From Shigella phage ESh24, in the sequence record ON528734: 64,000 nt of DNA; one strand, given 5' to 3'. Both the position numbers and the translations under genes were made by a program. Positions 5,607 through 17,384 of the stretch are shown piece by piece (within the stretch, counting starts at the first letter, position 1; every line of letters starts with the position of its first letter). A model generated the notes under the pieces. It was not told where the DNA came from, ran no database searches, and saw only the letters and a program-made list of their open reading frames with translations.

Positions 5607-6616
5607 TGAAAACAGTAATGAAAAGCTATTTTGGTAGTCATCTTTATGGAACTTCTACCCCAGAATCTGATGTAGATTTTAAAGAAATTTTTGTTCCTCC
5701 TGCTCGCGATATTCTTATCGGAAATGTTAAAGAGCATATGAGCAAAAACACTAACAACACATCATCTAAAAACACTAAAGATGATATTGACCATGAACTA
5801 TACAGTCTTAAGTATTTCTTTAAATTAGCAGCAGATGGTGAAACCGTAGCATTGGATATGCTTCACACTCCACCTGAACTAGTGGTTAAATCTGATTTGC
5901 CTGATGTGTGGAAGTTTATTCAAGACAACCGTTCTCGTTTTTATACGACTAACATGAAATCCTATTTAGGATATGTTCGCAAGCAAGCTTCTAAATACGG
6001 TGTCAAGGGTTCTCGTTTGGCTGCATTACGCGATGTATTGAAAGTAGTTAATCAAATCCCTGAGCAATGGGTTGATTACCAAGAAGATGGTTCTATTAAG
6101 CAGCGTCGTACTAAAGTTGAAGATATTAAGCATCGTCTTCCAGAAAACGAATTCTGTGAATGGGTGTTCCATAATCATGAGAAAACAGGTCCACAAACGT
6201 TCTATACTGTATTGGGTCGTAAATATCAGACAACTCTTTCTCTTATTGAGCTTAAGCAGTCACTGAACAAATTAGATGCTGAATATGGTGAACGTGCTCG
6301 TAAGGCCGAAGCCAATGAAGGTATTGACTGGAAAGCACTAAGTCATGCTTGTCGTGGTGGACTTCAACTATTGGAAATTTACAAAACTGGCGACTTAGTT
6401 TATCCACTCAAAGATGCTCCTTTTATTCTCGACGTGAAGTTGGGTAAGCATCCATTTAAAACGGTTCAAGAGTTTTTGGAAGATGTGGTCGATCAAGTAG
6501 AAGCAGCATCTACTGAAGCTTCTAAGAACGGTATGCAACAAAAAGTAGACATGAGTTTCTGGGATGACTTCCTTGAGAAGGTCTATCTTGAAAACCACCG
6601 AAATTATTATAAATGA
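5603..6616 (+). CDS. predicted Pol-beta-superfamily nucleotidyltransferase-fold protein (337 aa); nrdC.11 position
   Basis: Motif FGSHLYGTSTPESDVDF = hG[GS]-x(10)-D-h-D NTase signature; later hhDhh (VALDMLH). Confidence 0.65.
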   Translation: MMKTVMKSYFGSHLYGTSTPESDVDFKEIFVPPARDILIGNVKEHMSKNTNNTSSKNTKDDIDHELYSLKYFFKLAADGETVALDMLHTPPELVVKSDLPDVWKFIQDNRSRFYTTNMKSYLGYVRKQASKYGVKGSRLAALRDVLKVVNQIPEQWVDYQEDGSIKQRRTKVEDIKHRLPENEFCEWVFHNHEKTGPQTFYTVLGRKYQTTLSLIELKQSLNKLDAEYGERARKAEANEGIDWKALSHACRGGLQLLEIYKTGDLVYPLKDAPFILDVKLGKHPFKTVQEFLEDVVDQVEAASTEASKNGMQQKVDMSFWDDFLEKVYLENHRNYYK

Positions 6617-6618
6617 TA

Positions 6619-6643
6619 GGGAGCCTTCGGGCTCCCTTTTTTA
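6619..6643 (+). terminator. rho-independent terminator (GGGAGCC-UUCG-GGCTCCC + T run)
   Basis: 7-bp GC stem, UUCG loop, T6 tract. Confidence 0.85.
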
Positions 6644-6666
6644 TTTCAAAAATTTTTCACAAAGTT

Positions 6667-6698
6667 GTTTACAAGCATAAAGCTTTATGGTACTATAC
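6667..6698 (+). promoter_or_regulatory. T4-type early promoter with conserved leader cassette
   Basis: GTTTAC, TGGTACTATACAACTATCAACT core; A-rich upstream element. Confidence 0.75.
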
Positions 6699-6730
6699 AA
6701 CTATCAACTGATACGGATTTGGAGAATAAA

Positions 6731-7699
6731 ATGAAAACTGTAACTATCAATAAGGGTATCTACTTTGGCAAAGAAATCTCTGGAACTTTTGAACTCTTAG
6801 GTGAATGGTTCCCAGATAATGCTCCAGTAGATGCACAAGGAGATGGTAAAGTTTTTGTTGAAATTGACGGTAAACGTCGCGGTGTTTGGGTTTACAAATC
6901 AGACATTTCATATGATGGTGTAAAAGTTGAAGAAGTTAAAGAATCGTATGAAGATATGAAAACCCGCATTAATAAAAGATTTAATGTTATGGGAATGATG
7001 ACGAATGGTATTATTAACGGAAACATTCGTTCATTAATTATCTCTGGTGCGGCGGGTATTGGTAAAACGTATTCTTTAGATAAAGCTTTAAATAAAGCAA
7101 ATGATATTGGATACATTGAATATAAAAGCATTAACGGTAAAATCTCTGGTATCGGTCTTTATGAACAGCTTTGGAATAATCGTGAAGAGAATTCTGTCCT
7201 TTTGATTGATGATGTGGATGTTTTCTCTGATATGGACATTCTTAATCTTCTGAAAGCTGCTCTGGACACCGGAGAGACCCGTAAAGTCTGCTGGAGCACC
7301 GCATCTTCTTACTTAGAAGAAAAAGGCATTGAGCGTGAGTTTGAATTTAAAGGAACGATTGTTTTTATCACAAACGTTGACATTGACCGCGAATTAGACC
7401 GTGGTACTAAACTTGCTCCACATTTACAAGCATTAGTGTCCCGCTCAGTTTATTTGGATTTGGGTGTTCACACTAATGAAGAAATTATGGTCAGGGTTGA
7501 AGATGTTATTCTTTCAACTGACATGATGCAAAAGCGCGGTCTTTCTGATGAAGAAACTTATAAAGCATTATCATGGATGAAAGTCAATGTTAATCGTTTA
7601 CGCAATGTTTCACTGCGTACTGCACTTTATCTTGCTGACTTTATTATGACCGACAAAAATGGTTGGGAAGAAATTGCTGAGGTTACTCTTCTGAAATAA
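6731..7699 (+). CDS. predicted P-loop ATPase (AAA-like), 322 aa; nrdC.10 position
   Basis: Walker A GAAGIGKT, Walker B VLLIDDVD; ORF-track N-extension is leader, real start after GGAG RBS. Confidence 0.7.
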   Translation: MKTVTINKGIYFGKEISGTFELLGEWFPDNAPVDAQGDGKVFVEIDGKRRGVWVYKSDISYDGVKVEEVKESYEDMKTRINKRFNVMGMMTNGIINGNIRSLIISGAAGIGKTYSLDKALNKANDIGYIEYKSINGKISGIGLYEQLWNNREENSVLLIDDVDVFSDMDILNLLKAALDTGETRKVCWSTASSYLEEKGIEREFEFKGTIVFITNVDIDRELDRGTKLAPHLQALVSRSVYLDLGVHTNEEIMVRVEDVILSTDMMQKRGLSDEETYKALSWMKVNVNRLRNVSLRTALYLADFIMTDKNGWEEIAEVTLLK

Positions 7700-7797
7700 T
7701 TCATAAGAGGCCTTCTAAGATAAAAAGGCAGTTCAGAAATAGATTATATGGACTGCCATTAAAAAGATGACTAGAATTAAACTGGTAAATGGAGGTA

Positions 7798-8103
7798 ATG
7801 ATGTTATACTCAAAGGCTCGTGAAATTTACGAAACTAAAATTAAAGAAGCAGTATTTCAGTTCGCAACAACGATGCGATGGACAAATGATTGGGAATATT
7901 CAAAAAATCATAAGAAGCCCATGGTGACAAGAAAGGCTCATGTGTTAGTGTTAATAGACCGTGAGCAGATTAAAGCCCGAGAAGCCCTCCAGAATCATAA
8001 AAAGGCTGCCTTTGAATGGTTTATGGATAACACTGCTCCTGAGACTAAGAAAGCAGTGAGCGCTTGGTTCAGTGGAAAAAATTGTGAAAGAAGTTTCTTT
8101 TAG
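7798..8103 (+). CDS. hypothetical protein (~101 aa)
   Basis: GGAGG RBS 7791-7795; tandem ATGs at 7798/7801. Confidence 0.5.
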   Translation: MMLYSKAREIYETKIKEAVFQFATTMRWTNDWEYSKNHKKPMVTRKAHVLVLIDREQIKAREALQNHKKAAFEWFMDNTAPETKKAVSAWFSGKNCERSFF

Positions 8104-8105
8104 TT

Positions 8106-8137
8106 GTTTACAAGACAGTTCCTCTGTGGTACTATAC
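8106..8137 (+). promoter_or_regulatory. T4-type early promoter with conserved leader cassette
   Basis: GTTTAC, TGGTACTATACAACTATCAACTAC, GGAGGA RBS. Confidence 0.75.
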
Positions 8138-8163
8138 AACTATCAACTACGGAGGAACAGAAA

Positions 8164-8691
8164 ATGAATGCTAAAGATATTTTCAACTTGGTAAACTACA
8201 ATGATGGTAAATTTAAATCTGAAGCTCAAAGCAAGTTTTTTAATGATGTCTCAATCGGTGGTGAAATCACGGTTGATGGAGGACAAGTTTATAAATCTCG
8301 TTGGAATTGGATCGTTATTATCGATGAGATTGGTATTGTAGAAATTTACAAGAATACGAATAAAAATCGTACATTACACTGGTCTCGTGATACTAACGAA
8401 CAGTACAAAAAGGATAAAGCATCTAAATTATCTCGTGTAACTCAAGAAGATATTGAGTTCATCAAAAAGGATATTTTGATGTATGATAACTTAATTGCTG
8501 AAGAGCAAGCTGTTATTGATAAATTTGACGAGATTAAAGCTTCTCGTGAAATTCCTGATTTTATGAAAGAATCAGTAAATGAACGATACACTCTCATTTC
8601 AGAGCGTATTGAAACTTACAAAAAGCAAAGAGCTGAACGCCAGAACACTCTTCGGAAATTTGAAGAACGGTTAAAGACGGTACTCGCATAA
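8164..8691 (+). CDS. hypothetical protein (175 aa)
   Basis: Start after conserved leader; C-terminal charged helical region. Confidence 0.6.
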   Translation: MNAKDIFNLVNYNDGKFKSEAQSKFFNDVSIGGEITVDGGQVYKSRWNWIVIIDEIGIVEIYKNTNKNRTLHWSRDTNEQYKKDKASKLSRVTQEDIEFIKKDILMYDNLIAEEQAVIDKFDEIKASREIPDFMKESVNERYTLISERIETYKKQRAERQNTLRKFEERLKTVLA

Positions 8692-8715
8692 CCGCTTTAT
8701 ACCAAGGATGGTATA

Positions 8716-9150
8716 ATGGTTCTAAGCCCTTTAATTGAGAATATGAATATGAAACAGTTAATAATTAAAAGATTGAATTTATTGATATGTTGTTTATGTG
8801 TAATAGTTGCATATGGTTATTACGCAATTAATGATTATATGCATTATAAAGATTATGATGTTACTGTAGTTAATACCCTTACAGGAACTCAAGGAAAGGG
8901 ATCTAGTTTATCGTTTATTGCCGTATATGAACTCAAAGACGGTTATAGATTTAGTGAATATATTTCCCCAGAGATGTATTCATCAATAGAAAAAGGCGAT
9001 AATATTACTGTAAGTTTACGTCCTTTTGACGTAAAACAGACATGGTTTGATAATATTATTTGGTTCTTTGGAATGGCATTAGTTCAATCTATATGTGGTA
9101 CTTATATAGTATGTTCAATCTTATTCCGCATAATTGATAAAATTGAGTGA
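8716..9150 (+). CDS. predicted membrane protein (144 aa)
   Basis: N- and C-terminal hydrophobic segments. Confidence 0.5.
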   Translation: MVLSPLIENMNMKQLIIKRLNLLICCLCVIVAYGYYAINDYMHYKDYDVTVVNTLTGTQGKGSSLSFIAVYELKDGYRFSEYISPEMYSSIEKGDNITVSLRPFDVKQTWFDNIIWFFGMALVQSICGTYIVCSILFRIIDKIE

Positions 9151-9157
9151 GGAAAAT

Positions 9158-10048
9158 ATGTCAGTAGTAATTAATAATGTCAATGCAGTAATTAAATCTT
9201 TAGTTAATAAGAAAATGATGAATGAATGGACTGTACTTCGTCGTGGAGAGCCAGATAAATTTTTTCATAGATTTAACCCAACTTTGGATTTGAATGTTAT
9301 TGACAGAGATGTTCATGCAGAAATTTTAGATAAGTTTAAAGTTGATATTGGATTTGGATTAGAAAAACATTTACAGCGAACAAACGGGTCTGGAATGGGT
9401 TTATCTAATCGCATTATGAAAGCCCTTAATAAAATTGGAGCATTGTCTCGTATTAATGCAAGTGAAATTCTTCGCAATTATAATAAAGGCTATGATCTTT
9501 ATGGTCGATTAATGCCGAAATTATCATTTGACCAAATGATCGCGGATTTGTGGGAAAATCAACGACGATTATTAGCATTAGGCGCTCGATTAGCTAAAGG
9601 TCTAGATAAACAAATGATTTTTAAGACCAATAATACAGAAGACCTTAAATGCTTTAAATTTAGTACTCGTGGAGATGATTATTACATCAGAGCTCGCTCT
9701 ACTGATTATGCCAATATGGGTCATCATCTCTGTTTAGCTTTTGAAGTTTTAAAAGAAGCCGGAACATTAGAATATTCATCTGGTGCAAAATGCCCGATTG
9801 GTTCAAGTTGTATTTTAATTTATCGTCCGGATGAATCCAGTTCAACTAAATTGCCTACAAAACCTGTACCAGTTCGTAGTAATGAAAAACATTCTGAACA
9901 AATTGATTATTTTAATAAGCAAATTGAAGAGCTGAATATTTCTATTCAACAGTATGACGATGAAATTTTCAGACTATCTGGATTGAGTAGTAAAGCTAAA
10001 TCTGAGCGTGAAAAATTAATTAAAATTGTTGATTTACTTAAATCTTAA
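9158..10048 (+). CDS. hypothetical protein with C-terminal coiled coil (296 aa); member of tandem array
   Basis: GAGGAAA RBS; C-terminal heptad-rich segment. Confidence 0.6.
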   Translation: MSVVINNVNAVIKSLVNKKMMNEWTVLRRGEPDKFFHRFNPTLDLNVIDRDVHAEILDKFKVDIGFGLEKHLQRTNGSGMGLSNRIMKALNKIGALSRINASEILRNYNKGYDLYGRLMPKLSFDQMIADLWENQRRLLALGARLAKGLDKQMIFKTNNTEDLKCFKFSTRGDDYYIRARSTDYANMGHHLCLAFEVLKEAGTLEYSSGAKCPIGSSCILIYRPDESSSTKLPTKPVPVRSNEKHSEQIDYFNKQIEELNISIQQYDDEIFRLSGLSSKAKSEREKLIKIVDLLKS

Positions 10049-10056
10049 GGAACACC

Positions 10057-11079
10057 ATGAAAACTCGTTCTCAAATTGAAGATATGGTTCGTAATGCCAG
10101 CTATACTCGTGATGTTATGACATTTTTGTGCCAAAATAATTTAGACCCTGATAAAGTTAATCGTGTTATTCATCACTTTAAGTATACGAATAGCAGTGAA
10201 TGGGTGCGTAATTTTAGTAAAGCAGGGTATATTACGCAAATGACTGCTCGTGAACAGCTCACCGATTTCTGTAAAACTATTGATTATAAAAATCCTCTAT
10301 TTGTTCAAGGTGTTGGTCAAAGTAAGGTCGATTTATCATCTGGATTTTTCAATCCAAATCATTATCGTATTGAATGGAGATTTATTGCTCTATTCCGTAA
10401 ACAATTAAAGCAAATTTTGTCTACTGCTAGTCGATTAAAAGGTTCTGATATTAACTTAAAGAATCTGAAATTTGATGGTTATACTCTTCAGATGGAAGTA
10501 AGACCATTAAAAGAAAATAATAGAACTGCACGAATTAGCTTTAAACCTAATACAAAAAATTCTCTTTCAATTTGTGAATGCCTTAAATCACAGTTGACAG
10601 AAGCATTTAAGTATATGGATGTTGTTGCTGCTGTTCAATCTAAGATTTTACCTCGTTTTGAACGATTTAAGTTAGATACAACAACATATGAACTTGATAT
10701 GATTGTTTCATTTAAATACGATTTTTTGAGAAAGGACGAAGTCCCGCAAGAGAAAAAGCAGGAAGTGCAAGATACCTTAAATTCATCTAATTACTCATCA
10801 AACGATCCTAAATTTTGGATGTATAGCTCAAGCAATATAGATGCATGTAAACTTAATAAAGTGAGTTTTCTTCCTACTGAAAATTCAAATTTTAAACCTG
10901 TAGAAAAATGGCACGCTGACGCGATTGAGAAGTCTCTTAAGGCAGTAGATGATGAACTCGTTAAAGCGACCAATGAAGTGCTAGAAGCTGAAAAGGTGTT
11001 AGAACAAGCTCAGTCAAGGGTTCAAAATCTGACAAAGCAACGTTCTAAACTGAACAATGCACTAAATGCACTGAACTAG
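10057..11079 (+). CDS. hypothetical protein with C-terminal coiled coil (340 aa); member of tandem array
   Basis: Motif FRKQLKQILSTASRL resembles FKGQILKSASKL of next gene; C-terminal coiled coil. Confidence 0.6.
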   Translation: MKTRSQIEDMVRNASYTRDVMTFLCQNNLDPDKVNRVIHHFKYTNSSEWVRNFSKAGYITQMTAREQLTDFCKTIDYKNPLFVQGVGQSKVDLSSGFFNPNHYRIEWRFIALFRKQLKQILSTASRLKGSDINLKNLKFDGYTLQMEVRPLKENNRTARISFKPNTKNSLSICECLKSQLTEAFKYMDVVAAVQSKILPRFERFKLDTTTYELDMIVSFKYDFLRKDEVPQEKKQEVQDTLNSSNYSSNDPKFWMYSSSNIDACKLNKVSFLPTENSNFKPVEKWHADAIEKSLKAVDDELVKATNEVLEAEKVLEQAQSRVQNLTKQRSKLNNALNALN

Positions 11080-11110
11080 TTTACTTTGCCACAAGGATGT
11101 GGTATAATGT
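11079..11110 (+). promoter_or_regulatory. T4-type early promoter (GTTTACTTTGCCACAAGGATGTGGTATAAT)
   Basis: Near-identical 30-mer also at 55657-55686. Confidence 0.75.
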
Positions 11111-11136
11111 TCTTACTTTCTACTGAGGAGATTAAT

Positions 11137-12138
11137 ATGACTCGTAACGAATATATCAAATCATTCAATAGCGTTATTGATGATAAAGCTATACCGATGT
11201 TTGGCCAAAATAGCGTTCTTTCTATTATTAATCAATGGCTCAATAGTGTTGATGCAAGTATTGTTTCTTCTACTAAATTTATTCATGAAATTCGTAAAAT
11301 TTCTAGCCGTGTAGATAAAGATCTTATCAAGAAAACCTTTAAAGAGTCTCGTCTTCTTTCATATTTGGTTAATCGGGATATTCTTGGTAATTTTGGGAAA
11401 GAAATTAAACGAACCAAAGATGTAGTAGGATATAATTGGTTCGGTGATGTTAATTCTTATCATCTTAATAATAAAGAAGACCCTGAGAATATTTTTACTC
11501 GTCGTTGGATTAGTAATTTCAGACTTTTCAAAGGACAAATTCTAAAATCAGCTTCTAAATTATGTTATGGCGATTATCGTCAAATTCATCCTTTGGCTTC
11601 TGATATGATTATCGTAAAAGAATATGAGCTTGATGAAAATAAAGTAGCTATTTTTGTGAATTATGGATTTTTTACACCAAACGCTAACCAAAAGAATATT
11701 AATAAATTTTTCTCAATTGCTAGCACTATAACTCGTCAGTTAGAGACTGCATTACTTTGTATGGAAACAGTAGAAAATATTCATACATATCCTTTTAAGA
11801 ATATATGCGGATGGGAAGGATATAAAATTGTAATTAGTCTTCGTGAAGTGAAATGTGCTTATTCACCTACTGATAAAGAAATTTACCAACAAAAATGCGA
11901 AGAAATTGTGAATACTCCTAAAGAAGAAACTACCCTTGAGGAACTAATGGATAATCTTGATGATTCGCCTGAACCGGTAGAAATTCGTCCAGAAGTTATT
12001 GCGTTAGAAAAAGCTTATAAAGAAGTTCTAGAAATTTCTAATAAAGCACAGAAAGAATATGAGCAGGCTAAAAGGATTTGGGAAGAATCTGTTAATCGTC
12101 TTGATCGTTTGGAACAAGCTTTACAGTTAATTAAGTAA
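11137..12138 (+). CDS. hypothetical protein with C-terminal coiled coil (333 aa); member of tandem array
   Basis: GAGGAG RBS; shares internal motif with 10057 gene. Confidence 0.6.
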   Translation: MTRNEYIKSFNSVIDDKAIPMFGQNSVLSIINQWLNSVDASIVSSTKFIHEIRKISSRVDKDLIKKTFKESRLLSYLVNRDILGNFGKEIKRTKDVVGYNWFGDVNSYHLNNKEDPENIFTRRWISNFRLFKGQILKSASKLCYGDYRQIHPLASDMIIVKEYELDENKVAIFVNYGFFTPNANQKNINKFFSIASTITRQLETALLCMETVENIHTYPFKNICGWEGYKIVISLREVKCAYSPTDKEIYQQKCEEIVNTPKEETTLEELMDNLDDSPEPVEIRPEVIALEKAYKEVLEISNKAQKEYEQAKRIWEESVNRLDRLEQALQLIK

Positions 12139-12190
12139 TTTAAAGCCAAGGATGGCTCGGAGTATAAACCATTAACCAAGTGAGAAGAAT

Positions 12191-13117
12191 ATGAAAACTC
12201 GTAAACATTATATTGATTATTTTGACAGTCTTATTACTAAACATCGTGATTATCAGATAGGACACAGAACAGTAGTTAATAATATTCTTCGTGATTTTTT
12301 AGACTATATTGGATGGGAAAACCATATTTGTAAAGATACACAAAATGCGTATTCACATTCTCTTGGTTCTTTGCTAGGGTGGTTCAAACGTTCCCGATTA
12401 CTATCTTCTGTGATAGCTGTTAATAATGTTAAAAAATTTATGTATCCAAGCTATATTGAGACTAATGTATCAAATGCTAATGTTGTTACATTTAATATTA
12501 TTAATGACGTGAAAAGAACTTATTTAGAAGAATGGTTTTCTAAAAATAGTAAAGAAAAATTTGCTAGTGAGTTTTCACACGAATTTAATAATAATGTGAA
12601 TATGCTTTTTAAGCATTCTCGTAGACTGTTTTGTCATGGCGATGACCGTACTATTAATGTAAATGTAAAAGATTGGGTTACGGCTAAATTCATTCCATCA
12701 TCACAGAATGGACCATTTGAATTGTCAATTATTGTTTGTGCTCCACATGAAATATATAAAAATCTTCCATATATGAAACCATGTGAAGCTAATAAACATA
12801 ATAAAACGATTCGTTCTTTGACTTATAATCTTCGTACGTTATTGTCTAAAATGGACGTAGTTGAATCCTTTGATGATAATACGAATTATGGTCTTTCACT
12901 GTTTGAAACTAAAGTTGTTATTAAGTTAAAGGACCCTAGTAAATTTAAACCTACGCCAAAATCCAATCATGAAAATGATACTATGAAAGAAGAACGCGAA
13001 TATCTCAATGCTCGTTTGATTGAAGTTGAAGCCCAAATTGCAGAACACACCAAATTGTTAAAAGCTCTTAATGCAAAAGCAAATGGTTTACGTAATGCTA
13101 TTGAGGTATTGAAATGA
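12191..13117 (+). CDS. hypothetical protein with C-terminal coiled coil (308 aa); member of tandem array
   Basis: Same architecture as three upstream genes. Confidence 0.6.
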   Translation: MKTRKHYIDYFDSLITKHRDYQIGHRTVVNNILRDFLDYIGWENHICKDTQNAYSHSLGSLLGWFKRSRLLSSVIAVNNVKKFMYPSYIETNVSNANVVTFNIINDVKRTYLEEWFSKNSKEKFASEFSHEFNNNVNMLFKHSRRLFCHGDDRTINVNVKDWVTAKFIPSSQNGPFELSIIVCAPHEIYKNLPYMKPCEANKHNKTIRSLTYNLRTLLSKMDVVESFDDNTNYGLSLFETKVVIKLKDPSKFKPTPKSNHENDTMKEEREYLNARLIEVEAQIAEHTKLLKALNAKANGLRNAIEVLK

Positions 13118-13431
13118 AAAAGCGTCTATTAGAAGACATTGCAGCTTCAAGTAATTCTAGTCTAATTAAAATTATTATGGCTGGTGAAGAAGACGATCTG
13201 GAAATGCGTGGAAAGATTCATGGTTGTGACGATTTAGATTTTAAACCGCCAGCCTGGGACGCTATTATGGTTATGGTTGAACGTCGCGAAAGGGCTTCTA
13301 AAAACGTTCCTAATTGCCCTGAATGCGGTACTGAACAGGTGCAATTGGTCCATTGGCAGACTAGTAATCTTCGTTATAAATGTCGCCATTGTAAACACCG
13401 ATTTGACCGAGAAGAAAATGACCAAGCGTAA
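13114..13431 (+). CDS. hypothetical zinc-ribbon protein (105 aa)
   Basis: CPECG...CRHCKH four-Cys motif. Confidence 0.55.
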
Positions 13432-13660
13432 AGAATATATGGAGGCTGCTGAAAAGGCAGTCCGTGAATTAGCAATAGCTTATTATAATGAACATGGTAA
13501 ATTTCCTGATAGATACAGCGTGCTTAAATCTGCTTTAACTCGTTCATATAAAAATATGCTATCAGAAGTAAGTGATATTATATACAAACATAAAGAACAA
13601 ACAGGCCAAAGTCTTGATTACGACGAGACTTTTAAACAAGTACTAGGAATTAAGGAATAA
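13418..13660 (+). CDS. hypothetical protein (80 aa)
   Basis: ATG overlapping end of upstream ORF. Confidence 0.5.
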
Positions 13661-13661
13661 T

Positions 13662-13925
13662 ATGTTTAAAGTATATGGTTATGATAGCAACATCCATAAA
13701 TGCGTGTATTGTGATAATGCAAAACGTCTTTTGACCGTGAAGAAACAGCCATTTGAATTTATCAACATTATGCCGGAAAAAGGTGTTTTTGATGATGAGA
13801 AAATTGCTGAGCTTCTGACTAAACTAGGTCGTGATACTCAAATTGGATTGACAATGCCGCAGGTATTCGCTCCAGATGGAAGTCATATTGGTGGATTTGA
13901 CCAATTGCGGGAATATTTTAAATGA
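13662..13925 (+). CDS. nrdC: thioredoxin/glutaredoxin NrdC
   Basis: 87 aa, CVYC redox motif; matches T4 thioredoxin. Confidence 0.9.
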   Translation: MFKVYGYDSNIHKCVYCDNAKRLLTVKKQPFEFINIMPEKGVFDDEKIAELLTKLGRDTQIGLTMPQVFAPDGSHIGGFDQLREYFK

Positions 13926-14137
13926 TGCTTGAAGGAACTGATTATATCCATGACTACCGCGGAAGCGCGGTATATGTAGGTGATGAAGTTGCAGTTTACT
14001 ACGGGTATGGAACTTTGATGACAGCTAAGGTTATTCAAATTAAAAATAATCGTGCTAAACTCGAAGTTTATTATTCTAATGGTGAAAAGTCTATTTCTAA
14101 ATGGAAATATGGCGATTGCATGGTTAAACTGGGGTAA
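13922..14137 (+). CDS. hypothetical protein (71 aa)
   Basis: ATGA overlap with nrdC. Confidence 0.5.
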   Translation: MMLEGTDYIHDYRGSAVYVGDEVAVYYGYGTLMTAKVIQIKNNRAKLEVYYSNGEKSISKWKYGDCMVKLG

Positions 14138-14139
14138 AT

Positions 14140-14310
14140 ATGATTTACGATATTAGTGTATCAAGAACTCCGTCAATGGTTACTATTCCAGCTGAAGAAT
14201 TAGATCGTCTTCATAAAATTGAAGAACTTCTTTGGGAAATTGAATGTGACCTGCCATCAGGACTAGAATCCTGGATTGAATATGAAGAACTTAATAAGCT
14301 TCGGGATTAA
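14140..14310 (+). CDS. hypothetical protein (56 aa)
   Basis: ORF following upstream stop; <60 aa. Confidence 0.4.
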   Translation: MIYDISVSRTPSMVTIPAEELDRLHKIEELLWEIECDLPSGLESWIEYEELNKLRD

Positions 14311-14432
14311 ACCTTGGTGGGCGGCTAGATGGGAAACTGTAGAGCCAGAGCCGGAAGAACCGGTTTACACAGATGAAGAAATAGTATATAATGAACCAAC
14401 AATAAATGACTTAATTGATATGGAGATGGGAC

Positions 14433-14879
14433 ATGATTACAGTAAATAAATGGTTTAGAATTAATCGTGCTGATAATGGTCTTTGTACATACTGGCCAGA
14501 ACTCAATGTAGGCACCGTCTTTAAAGTTCGTCAAATTGCATGTGAAGATCTTGATAGTATAGAATCTGATACTGGAATTATTGAAATTGAACTTTCTGAC
14601 GGAAAGATTATTAATATCTACGATAAGCCAATTACTTACTGGTGTTTGTGGAATAACGAATCTGTCGAAAATGGCGAAATTGAAGAAGTTGTAGAACGAA
14701 TTGATCAAGTTCTTCATAAACCCAAAGCTGAATTCCAAGGTGAACGTATTTCTTATGCTCTAGCTAAATTAGCTGGGCAAGAGAATAATGATGGTTATGA
14801 AGGTAACCTGATGCAAGCTGCGGCAGAATATATTGAATGGCTTGAAACTCAAAAATCTTTTTCTGACCGAGCGTTTTAA
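14433..14879 (+). CDS. hypothetical protein (148 aa); possibly pin (protease inhibitor) by position
   Basis: Position between nrdC and 49; identity not verifiable from sequence alone. Confidence 0.45.
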   Translation: MITVNKWFRINRADNGLCTYWPELNVGTVFKVRQIACEDLDSIESDTGIIEIELSDGKIINIYDKPITYWCLWNNESVENGEIEEVVERIDQVLHKPKAEFQGERISYALAKLAGQENNDGYEGNLMQAAAEYIEWLETQKSFSDRAF

Positions 14880-15055
14880 TGAAAACTGAACTGATTTATA
14901 CAGAAAAACTGAATGGCGGCAAGGTCTGGAAACTTTTTATTAAAGGAAGTCCTGTCGATCCCAATATGACTACTTGTGTAGGAACTTATTCCCGTCCTAC
15001 TAAAAAGATGATTCGACAATATAAGCGATTGCATCGTGCATTTTACAATACTTGA
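14879..15055 (+). CDS. hypothetical basic small protein (58 aa)
   Basis: ATGA overlap with upstream ORF. Confidence 0.4.
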   Translation: MKTELIYTEKLNGGKVWKLFIKGSPVDPNMTTCVGTYSRPTKKMIRQYKRLHRAFYNT

Positions 15056-15096
15056 AAATAATAAATACCCTTATCTATTTAAGGTAAGGGTTTATT

Positions 15097-15570
15097 ATGT
15101 TATTGACTGGCAAATTATACAAAGAAGAAAAACAGAAATTTTATGATGCACAAAATGGTAAATGTTTAATTTGCCAGCGAGAACTAAATCCTGATGTTCA
15201 AGCTAATCATCTTGATCATGACCATGAATTAAATGGACCAAAAGCAGGAAAGGTACGTGGATTGCTTTGTAATCTCTGCAATGCCGCAGAAGGTCAAATG
15301 AAACATAAATTTAATCGTTCTGGCTTAAAGGGGCAAGGTGTTGATTATCTTGAATGGTTAGAAAATTTACTTACTTATTTAAAATCCGATTACACCCAAA
15401 ATAATATTCACCCTAACTTTGTTGGAGATAAATCAAAGGAATTTTCTCGTTTAGGAAAAGATGAAATGATGGCTGAGATGCTTCAAAGAGGATTTGAATA
15501 TAATGAATCTGACACTAAAACACAGTTAATAGCTTCATTTAAGAAGCAGCTTAGAAAGAGTTTAAAATGA
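15097..15570 (+). CDS. 49: endonuclease VII (Holliday junction resolvase)
   Basis: 157 aa; CLICQ...HLDHDHELNG...CNLCN His-Cys box typical of T4 EndoVII. Confidence 0.9.
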   Translation: MLLTGKLYKEEKQKFYDAQNGKCLICQRELNPDVQANHLDHDHELNGPKAGKVRGLLCNLCNAAEGQMKHKFNRSGLKGQGVDYLEWLENLLTYLKSDYTQNNIHPNFVGDKSKEFSRLGKDEMMAEMLQRGFEYNESDTKTQLIASFKKQLRKSLK

Positions 15571-17384
15571 CAATTGAAAAAGAAATTGAAGGATTGATTC
15601 ATAAAACTAATAAAGACCTTTTGAACGAGAATGCTAATAAAGATTCTCGTGTTTTTCCAACTCAACGGGACCTTATGGCTGGTATTGTGTCTAAACACAT
15701 TGCCAAAAATATGGTCCCGTCTTTTATTATGAAAGCGCATGAAAGCGGAATTATTCATTTCCATGATATTGATTATTCCCCTGCTCTTCCATTTACTAAT
15801 TGTTGTTTAGTAGATTTAAAAGGAATGCTTGAAAACGGATTTAAGCTTGGTAATGCACAGATTGAAACTCCTAAATCAATTGGAGTTGCTACTGCAATTA
15901 TGGCACAAATTACTGCGCAAGTTGCTTCTCACCAATACGGCGGAACGACCTTTGCGAATGTAGATAAAGTACTTTCTCCTTATGTTAAACGCACCTATGC
16001 AAAACATATTGAGGATGCAGAAAAATGGCAAATCGCCGATGCGTTGAATTATGCTCAATCTAAAACAGAAAAAGATGTATACGATGCATTCCAAGCTTAT
16101 GAATATGAAGTAAATACTCTCTTTAGTTCAAACGGACAGACTCCTTTTGTAACAATTACATTTGGTACGGGAACTGACTGGACTGAACGAATGATTCAGA
16201 AAGCAATTCTGAAAAATCGTATTAAAGGTCTTGGTCGTGATGGGATAACTCCTATTTTCCCTAAGCTTGTTATGTTCGTCGAAGAAGGTGTTAATCTTTA
16301 TAAAGACGATCCGAACTATGATATTAAGCAACTTGCTCTAGAGTGCGCAAGTAAAAGAATGTATCCTGATATTATTTCAGCTAAGAACAATAAAGCTATC
16401 ACTGGCTCATCTATTCCTGTTTCTCCAATGGGTTGTCGTAGTTTCTTGAGCATATGGAAAGATTCGACTGGTAATGAAATTCTTGATGGACGTAATAATC
16501 TTGGCGTTGTAACACTGAATCTTCCTCGTATCGCATTAGATTCTTATATTGGAACACAGTTCAATGAACAGAAATTTACTGAATTATTCAATGAACGAAT
16601 GGATTTATGTTTTGAAGCTTTGATGCGTAGAATTAGTTCCTTAAAAGGAGTTAAAGCTACTGTTGCTCCTATTCTTTACCAAGAAGGTGCATTCGGGGTT
16701 CGTCTTAAACCTGACGACGACATAATTGAGTTATTTAAAAACGGTAGAAGTTCAGTGTCTTTAGGATACATTGGTATTCACGAATTGAATATTCTTGCCG
16801 GTCGTGATATTGGACGAGAAATTTTAACTAAAATGAATGCTCGTCTTAAACAGTGGACTGAAAGAACTGGATTTGCTTTTAGTTTATATTCGACTCCTGC
16901 TGAAAACCTTTGTTATCGCTTCTGTAAACTTGATACTGAAAAATATGGAAGTGTAAAGGATGTTACCGATAAAGGCTGGTACACTAATAGTTTCCATGTT
17001 TCAGTAGAAGAAAATATTACTCCGTTTGAAAAGATTTCTCGTGAAGCGCCATATCATTTCATTGCGACAGGTGGTCACATTTCTTATGTTGAACTTCCTG
17101 ATATGAAAAATAACTTAAAGGGTCTTGAGGCTGTCTGGGATTATGCTGTGCAGCATTTAGATTATTTTGGTGTTAACATGCCAGTAGATAAGTGTTTTAC
17201 ATGCGGAAGTACCCATGAAATGACTCCTACTGAAAGCGGATTTGTTTGTTCTATTTGTGGAGAAAGTGATCCTAAAAAGATGAACACAATAAGAAGAACA
17301 TGTGGTTATTTGGGAAATCCGAACGAGCGCGGATTTAATCTTGGCAAAAATAAAGAAATCATGCATAGGGTTAAACACCAATGA
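15567..17384 (+). CDS. nrdD: anaerobic ribonucleoside-triphosphate reductase, intron-less
   Basis: 605 aa uninterrupted; glycyl-radical motif RRTCGYLG and C-terminal CFTCG...CSICG zinc site. Confidence 0.95.
   Translation: MTIEKEIEGLIHKTNKDLLNENANKDSRVFPTQRDLMAGIVSKHIAKNMVPSFIMKAHESGIIHFHDIDYSPALPFTNCCLVDLKGMLENGFKLGNAQIETPKSIGVATAIMAQITAQVASHQYGGTTFANVDKVLSPYVKRTYAKHIEDAEKWQIADALNYAQSKTEKDVYDAFQAYEYEVNTLFSSNGQTPFVTITFGTGTDWTERMIQKAILKNRIKGLGRDGITPIFPKLVMFVEEGVNLYKDDPNYDIKQLALECASKRMYPDIISAKNNKAITGSSIPVSPMGCRSFLSIWKDSTGNEILDGRNNLGVVTLNLPRIALDSYIGTQFNEQKFTELFNERMDLCFEALMRRISSLKGVKATVAPILYQEGAFGVRLKPDDDIIELFKNGRSSVSLGYIGIHELNILAGRDIGREILTKMNARLKQWTERTGFAFSLYSTPAENLCYRFCKLDTEKYGSVKDVTDKGWYTNSFHVSVEENITPFEKISREAPYHFIATGGHISYVELPDMKNNLKGLEAVWDYAVQHLDYFGVNMPVDKCFTCGSTHEMTPTESGFVCSICGESDPKKMNTIRRTCGYLGNPNERGFNLGKNKEIMHRVKHQ

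Follow-up and report, generated by a model that had tools for sequence, protein, structure and literature searches.

The nrdC.3–nrdC.6 array of Shigella phage ESh24: four tandem paralogs that include the ortholog of the T4 anti-Dsr1 gene nrdC.5

We analysed a 64,000-nucleotide stretch of Shigella phage ESh24 (sequence record ON528734; hereafter the window), in which four consecutive genes, nrdC.6, nrdC.5, nrdC.4 and nrdC.3, lie upstream of the thioredoxin gene nrdC. The sequence comparisons make a solid case that the four genes form one paralogous family. One member has a published phenotype in T4: an evolved T4 clone with deletions fails to plate both on ECOR17 and on MG1655 into which the dsr1 gene of ECOR17 has been placed, and expression of nrdC.5 in trans restores plating on Dsr1 cells (Srikant, Guegler and Laub 2022, PMC9391042). 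The best reading of these data, to which we give about an even chance, is that the array encodes a diversified family of non-enzymatic immune-sensor blockers. As part of that explanation, and with the same even chance attached to the whole, the four genes would be ancient tandem duplicates of a single gene restricted to T4-like (Straboviridae) phages. The genes have long been annotated and the anti-Dsr1 phenotype was published in 2022; neither nrdC.3–6 as one family nor their mechanism is described in the searchable literature.

Identity of the locus and homology among its four proteins

A first-pass annotation of the window had proposed four open reading frames (ORFs) here and assigned them to the nrdC.3–nrdC.6 positions. 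All four are present on the + strand where that annotation placed them, and alignment of the reverse complement of the T4 reference to the window bore out the names, the ORFs corresponding in order to nrdC.6, nrdC.5, nrdC.4 and nrdC.3. Downstream of nrdC.3 follow nrdC.2, nrdC.1, the thioredoxin gene nrdC (13662-13925) and endonuclease VII (gene 49). Each of the four genes starts with ATG and has a GAGG-type ribosome-binding site ahead of it. The window is of the T4 type: the 4.5 kb around the array is matched by 540 phage records, the best at ~96% identity and T4 at 95.7-95.8%. The genes, with the basis of each assignment in brackets, are as follows.

9158..10048, + strand: nrdC.6, 296 amino acids (aa), PF26899 / phrog_2257, E 4e-152 (ORF, T4 annotation)
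10057..11079, + strand: nrdC.5, 340 aa, DUF7235 (PF23882) (PF23882 at 401 bits, T4 identity)
11137..12138, + strand: nrdC.4, 333 aa, PF26897 / phrog_1435 (PHROGs, precomputed Pfam label on homologs)
12191..13117, + strand: nrdC.3, 308 aa, phrog_1435, E 3e-101 (ORF, PHROGs)

The PF23882 score of nrdC.5 compares with a cut-off of 30 bits and covers profile positions 1-307 of 307; a Pfam scan gave no match of PF23882 to nrdC.6, nrdC.4 or nrdC.3, leaving nrdC.5 as its sole member among the four. The second gene of the array is thus the ortholog of T4 NrdC.5, with 94.4% identity, full-length DUF7235 and the same genomic position, and the residues that differ lie in variable regions. The other three are distant paralogs of T4 NrdC.5 and, unlike it, fall outside DUF7235, in families PF26899 and PF26897. 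PF26899 is the precomputed Pfam label on all homologs of nrdC.6, the paralog with the highest conservation. PHROGs groups nrdC.4 with nrdC.3 (phrog_1435) and assigns nrdC.6 and nrdC.5 to a separate family each.

The paralogs are ~15-25% identical to one another, and pairwise BLAST linked nrdC.4 and nrdC.3 alone (E 1e-4, 23% identity over 278 residues). Family alignments were then built from database homologs and the ORFs of related phages, and the resulting profiles were compared by hhalign. The closest paralog of nrdC.3 was nrdC.4 (98% probability, E 2e-13); nrdC.5 aligned to the merged nrdC.3 and nrdC.4 profile at 75% (E 2.5e-5, 146 columns), and for nrdC.6, without enrichment, comparison with the profiles of the remaining three merged into one gave E 2e-4 in an alignment of 104 collinear columns. 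An unguided MAFFT alignment of a balanced set of 22 sequences brought two motifs, a proline linker and the C-terminal end into shared columns. When the profile of this alignment was compared with 1.84 billion representative proteins, just 33 matched at E<=1e-3, indicating that the NrdC.3–6 family is very small.

Full-length proteins newly found among these matches serve as intermediates that connect the families further. Five of them (P0235, P0238, P0243, P0248 and P0249) match the hidden Markov models (HMMs) of both nrdC.6 and nrdC.5, two (P0236 and P0246) match those of nrdC.5 and nrdC.4, and P0244 matches all four. Several of these double matches, for example those of P0238 and P0244, survive with HMMs of the N-domain only, from which the C-terminal helix had been cut away, so coiled-coil composition is not their cause. 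The closest relatives of P0235 and P0244 in isolated phages are just 22-28% identical to them. Every intermediate was put into its best-matching family and hhalign was rerun with these enriched profiles. This gave 97.8% for nrdC.6 against nrdC.5 (E 9e-13, 207 columns), 96.8% for nrdC.6 against nrdC.3 and nrdC.4 (E 2e-10, N-domain only) and 98.3% for nrdC.5 against nrdC.3 and nrdC.4 (E 2e-14). The first-pass proposal of tandem paralogs therefore stands, N-terminal domains included. No DNA-level repeats of >22 nucleotides (nt) were found between the paralogs, which rules out recent duplication and indicates that the duplications are old.

A conserved core and a C-terminal helical module

An internal motif common to nrdC.5 and nrdC.4 had been noticed from the sequence at first pass. 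This motif, hereafter motif B, is real: FRKQLKQILSTASRL of nrdC.5 and FKGQILKSASKL of nrdC.4 are aligned by hhalign, and with the counterparts ENQRRLLALGARLAKG in nrdC.6 and NNVNMLFKHSRRLFCHG in nrdC.3 it extends to all four proteins. Together with a second motif, motif A, it lies in a core that was delimited in each protein, by the methods given in brackets.

9407..9790, + strand: nrdC.6 core, aa 84-211, motif A KALNKIGALSRINASEILRNYNK, motif B ENQRRLLALGARLAKGLDKQ, then hairpin-helix-hairpin (hhalign, MAFFT, AlphaFold2)
10195..10650, + strand: nrdC.5 core, aa 47-198, motif A RNFSKAGYITQMTAREQLTDFCK, motif B LFRKQLKQILSTASRLKGSDI (hhalign)
11320..11802, + strand: nrdC.4 core, aa 62-222, motif A KTFKESRLLSYLVNRDILGNFGK, motif B FRLFKGQILKSASKLCYGDYRQ (hhalign, AlphaFold2)
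12377..12883, + strand: nrdC.3 core, aa 63-231, motif A GWFKRSRLLSSVIAVNNVKKFMY, motif B FNNNVNMLFKHSRRLFCHGDDRT (hhalign against nrdC.4, MAFFT alignment)

The core of nrdC.5 is almost invariant within Tequatrovirus. The AlphaFold2 model of nrdC.4 (predicted local distance difference test, pLDDT, 80.6) is structured over residues 1-~274, followed by a disordered linker (274-283) and a single 48-residue helix (285-332). That of nrdC.6 (pLDDT 74.2) is structured over 1-~222; its disordered linker spans 228-244, and two helices follow (246-274 and 278-295). The order of predicted secondary structure is identical in the two models: N-terminal helices, short strands, the two motif-B helices, a beta hairpin, a long helix, a second hairpin, the low-confidence linker and the C-terminal helix. 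In Foldseek searches of predicted viral structures (BFVD), both models matched the same uncharacterised full-length proteins of 309-370 aa, from Enterobacter phage IME523, Pectobacterium phage PM2, Acinetobacter phage fHyAci03 and Serratia phage PS2, with E 1e-3 to 1e-7, and the nrdC.4 model also matched nrdC.3 (E 2e-8). The template modelling scores (TM-scores) were just 0.3-0.5, because the long helix and the domains are flexibly linked.

Across the superfamily, the positions conserved in >=90% of sequences are a Leu, an Ala, a Pro and a Leu only, and searches of Pfam, NCBIfam and PADLOC at their curated cut-offs matched no enzyme family, DUF7235 itself being the one match. NCBIfam and PADLOC returned just sub-threshold coiled-coil noise, and sequence searches of the PDB gave nothing useful. 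The lack of an enzyme match together with these four conserved positions makes a non-enzymatic, binding-type mechanism the most economical.

The C-terminal modules were delimited as follows.

9893..10042, + strand: nrdC.6 module, aa 246-295, two helices broken at LSGLS (AlphaFold2, periodicity p=0.0015, invariant alignment columns)
10906..11076, + strand: nrdC.5 module, aa 284-340 (periodicity p<0.0005, period 3.50; heptad score p=0 in 200 shuffles)
11989..12132, + strand: nrdC.4 single helix, aa 285-332 (AlphaFold2, periodicity p<0.0005)
12977..13114, + strand: nrdC.3 module, aa 263-308 (periodicity p=0.03, shared end motif)

Periodicity was assessed by a Fourier test for a 3.5-residue hydrophobic repeat in the last 46-57 residues against 2000 shuffles, which stands in for a dedicated coiled-coil predictor. 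It was significant in all four proteins (p<=0.0015 for nrdC.6, nrdC.5 and nrdC.4, p=0.03 for nrdC.3), with a best period of 3.45-3.50, and in three of the four it was the strongest such signal within the whole protein. A cruder heptad score for a and d positions was positive for nrdC.6, nrdC.5 and nrdC.3 and failed for nrdC.4. The heptad-type C-termini described at first pass were thus recovered, as was the shared architecture of a globular N-terminal region followed by a C-terminal helix, which is seen in the AlphaFold2 models of nrdC.4 and nrdC.6 and in the periodicity of all four C-termini.

Family-wide, the module starts with P[VI]x[VE]..H[YFW]A..[IM]E and ends with QRxKLxxA[IL]xxLK at the extreme end of the protein, and this conservation indicates a real shared domain and not a generic charged helix. 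Profile comparisons of the C-terminus only gave no significance (best E 2e-3), because the segments are too short, and homology of the module therefore rests on the full-length alignments and the shared end motif. The module may pair with itself, with other paralogs or with another partner.

The T4 reference differs in this part of nrdC.6. NC_000866 (locus L001, 4159-5057) is one A short relative to window 9920-9945, the window reading GCTGAATATT and T4 GCTG-ATATT; the resulting frameshift turns the C-terminal helix into a 16-aa junk tail, and the protein is annotated at 275 aa, not 296. In the T4D genome of the HIDEN-SEQ preprint, nrdC.6 is annotated as a full 891-nt gene, so the T4 reference may hold a sequencing error or a stock-specific mutation.

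Variation, proposed function and competing explanations

In phages T4, RZ, SP18, Bp7, C6, NHEP10, IME523 and JD18, members of the family precede nrdC and gene 49 in transcriptional order. Their copy number varies from 1 to 4 by genus, and deletions and fusions add to this variation. Kanagawavirus IME523 (Enterobacter) and Jiaodavirus JD18 (Klebsiella) have one member each, the JD18 protein being roughly equidistant from all three profiles. Three members are found in Gaprivervirus and Dhakavirus (nrdC.6, nrdC.5-like and nrdC.4) and, with another make-up, in phage NHEP10 (nrdC.6-like, nrdC.5-like and nrdC.3-like); T4-type phages have four. In SP18 (locus L004, 4956-5860) the nrdC.5-like gene is broken into two. 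ACG-C40 (locus L008, 4802-5213) keeps nrdC.6 and has a 71-aa nrdC.5 stump joined to the tail of nrdC.3, while an nrdC.5::nrdC.3 fusion without nrdC.4 (protein P0056) occurs on one 167-kb contig, and nrdC.6 of Sf25 (protein P0120) contains an 82-aa internal duplication. The most variable member is nrdC.3, which falls into three deeply diverged classes of alleles (90-97%, 60-80% and <60% identity) among 653 phage records.

Pairwise ratios of nonsynonymous to synonymous substitution rates (dN/dS), calculated for the window genes against T4 and WL-3, were 0.18-0.34 for nrdC.5, nrdC.4 and nrdC.3, compared with 0.00-0.15, mostly <=0.1, for nrdC, gene 49, nrdC.1, nrdC.8, nrdC.9 and nrdC.10. Within T4-type phages, substitutions concentrate at aa ~20-60 and in the linker, with almost no change in the core or in the C-terminal helix. 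Two flanking genes also showed raised values relative to the other neighbours, nrdC.7 (8749-9150) at 0.23-0.28 and nrdC.2 (13114-13431) at up to 0.23; none of the loci examined from Gaprivervirus and Dhakavirus contains nrdC.7.

The block that contains the array is also the home of other counter-defence genes: nrdC.1 is a reported Septu inhibitor (HIDEN-SEQ), and 49.2, in the same block in T4, is a reported OLD inhibitor. All four array genes take transposon insertions in T4 on K-12, according to the HIDEN-SEQ supplement, and are thus dispensable there. The tetratricopeptide repeat (TPR) sensor of Dsr1, which is common to Avs7, is triggered by the phage major capsid protein (2026 preprint, PMC12803255).

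Each protein has four parts: helices of variable sequence at the N-terminus, an alpha/beta core that is conserved and contains the two motifs, a floppy proline linker and a conserved ~50-aa amphipathic helix with heptad periodicity. In the mechanism that we propose for the blockers, the four proteins would be made early, before the late-protein triggers appear. The C-terminal coiled coil may drive oligomerisation, the constant core and helix serving as a scaffold, and the diversified N-terminal region would provide a specificity surface that binds and blocks host immune sensors. By analogy with DSAD1 and DSR2, NrdC.5 may bind Dsr1, a SIR2 NADase, directly and prevent its activation, and a separate target would exist for each of NrdC.3, NrdC.4 and NrdC.6. 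Anti-defence roles for these three are suggested by their kinship with NrdC.5.

DSAD1, from an SPbeta-type phage, has a like role in that, according to published abstracts, it neutralises a SIR2 NADase that senses a phage structural protein: DSR2 is repressed by DSAD1 and activated by the tail tube protein. Between DSAD1 and NrdC.5, no relationship was found in sequence or in fold. The known T-even anti-defence clusters (the dmd-tifA-adfA 'anti-TA island', nrdC.1 against Septu and 49.2 against OLD) are likewise early, dispensable and variable blocks with one host system per gene. Those islands gather unrelated small genes, whereas nrdC.3–6 are four paralogs of ~300 aa, and their mutual paralogy points to diversification by duplication inside the island and not to a collection of unrelated genes.

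The first-pass annotation had viewed the array as an arms-race locus of host-takeover, exclusion or anti-defence factors. For nrdC.5 this view is supported directly by experiment, through the rescue against Dsr1 in T4. For the locus as a whole the support is circumstantial, coming from its neighbours, copy number, replacement of nrdC.3 alleles and the dN/dS of three of the four genes; nrdC.6 does not conform.

Several observations weigh against a family of direct sensor blockers. The dN/dS of nrdC.6, at 0.04-0.08, is housekeeping-like, and such strong purifying selection within Tequatrovirus means that this gene is not arms-race-like. The HIDEN-SEQ main text flags nrdC.1 and none of nrdC.3–6, and in one host comparison from its supplement the fitness changes of the array genes are non-significant. 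A literature search found no experiment tying nrdC.3, nrdC.4 or nrdC.6 to a defence system. The multi-family intermediates draw the enriched profiles together, which is normal transitive-homology logic and not independent evidence. The models cover nrdC.4 and nrdC.6, the fold of nrdC.5 being deduced from profiles, and a long amphipathic helix could bind a partner protein instead of oligomerising. Finally, the route from NrdC.5 to relief from Dsr1 may be indirect.

This last point can be developed into an explanation of its own, which we consider unlikely: the proteins would remodel a host process early in infection, or keep a phage trigger such as unassembled major capsid protein away from the sensors, and relief from Dsr1 would be a side effect. 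It is compatible with the published nrdC.5 evidence, which is a plating phenotype in trans only (PMC9391042), the highly conserved core and C-terminal module could mean one partner common to all paralogs, and the purifying selection on nrdC.6 fits a conserved cellular or phage target. However, the array is dispensable on K-12 and largely lost in natural phages, so that no general infection step relies on its genes, and variable N-terminal regions together with allele replacement suit changing targets better than a fixed one. We regard as similarly improbable that nrdC.5 is the sole anti-defence gene, the other three drifting or being otherwise employed, for example as host-takeover or exclusion factors unrelated to immunity. 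The ~15-25% identity between paralogs does leave room for functional change, and nrdC.3, nrdC.4 and nrdC.6 have no reported phenotype. Yet all four reading frames have stayed intact in hundreds of genomes, their dN/dS is well <1, the architecture and the end motif are kept in all four, and the array shares its block with several known counter-defence genes.

A more elaborate scheme, to which we assign a small probability, is that the proteins are decoys, made early, whose fold was taken over from a structural protein of phages, of the tail-terminator type, and that they are joined by their coiled coils, perhaps into mixed paralog oligomers, with each head filling one sensor. NrdC.5 would then fill the TPR sensor of Dsr1, and the others would fill related Avs7-type sensors that detect late structural proteins; the array would work as an expandable anti-sensor device with several heads, its repertoire being enlarged by tandem duplication. 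The likeness to tail terminator or completion proteins of the lambda gpU type has low fold scores, covers one third of the protein and comes with 2-16% identity. Expression timing, dispensability and architecture all differ from those of gpU-type tail terminators, making the likeness a lead and not homology. Very improbable, in our estimate, is that the four are virion or tail-completion proteins, or thioredoxin-type or nucleotide-metabolism enzymes, the latter being the common GenBank label. The thioredoxin/glutaredoxin label was rejected: Pfam and NCBIfam gave no thioredoxin match, and there is no CxxC in any of the four proteins. Many phage records call nrdC.3–nrdC.6 'thioredoxin', a label that was apparently derived from the name of the locus and then propagated, and one T6 record calls nrdC.5 'tail sheath stabilizer and completion protein'.

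Flanking region and significance

Promoter-like and terminator-like elements were found in and upstream of the array, and an Rfam search of window positions 6000-16000 returned nothing. One of them lies within the array itself.

11080..11108, + strand: early-promoter-like site in the nrdC.5/nrdC.4 spacer, TTTACT-17 nt-TATAAT with a TG extension (consensus match alone, 10/12)

Two further promoter-like sites, at 6668-6696 before nrdC.10 and at 8107-8135 before nrdC.8, are near-identical (TTTACA-17 nt-TACTAT, TG). Mechanically called ORFs across both sites have the peptide GTIQLST in common, so the DNA is repeated, and a copied T4 early promoter with its leader is the probable origin of both. 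Between nrdC.11 and nrdC.10, at 6618-6637, a strong GC-rich hairpin (AGGGAGCC-TTCG-GGCTCCCT) followed by a T run resembles a terminator on the + strand. The nrdC.10 gene (6731-7699), hypothetical in the T4 record, encodes the Walker A-like sequence GAAGIGKT and the Walker B-like sequence LLIDDVD and on these grounds resembles a P-loop ATPase.

On the other side of the array, at 13922-14310, T4 genes 49.3 and 49.2 have no counterpart anywhere in the 64-kb window; two unrelated ORFs of 71 and 56 aa replace them between nrdC and 49.1, and the site looks like another accessory-gene swap point. The match to the Lon inhibitor Pin is split, residues 1-146 of T4 Pin lying at 14433-14870 and residues 144-161 at 14999-15052. 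The second piece is spanned by a separate 58-aa ORF (14879-15055), a sign that the 3' end of pin has taken up an insertion or been rearranged.

The Dsr1 defence, which depletes NAD+, is widespread, and the paralogy of nrdC.3, nrdC.4 and nrdC.6 with NrdC.5 makes them three candidate counter-defence genes in the best-studied phage. The 'thioredoxin' mislabel, widespread on nrdC.3–6, is corrected here. The analysis also delimits the constant parts of the proteins (the core motifs and the C-terminal helix) and the varying parts (the N-terminal helices and the linker), so that the division between specificity and scaffold can be tested by domain swaps. The finding is unsurprising for an accessory block of T4, yet it opens cheap and direct experiments. 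The array would also provide a clean example of an anti-defence repertoire enlarged by duplication, the phages of Klebsiella and Enterobacter having a single copy and T4 having four.

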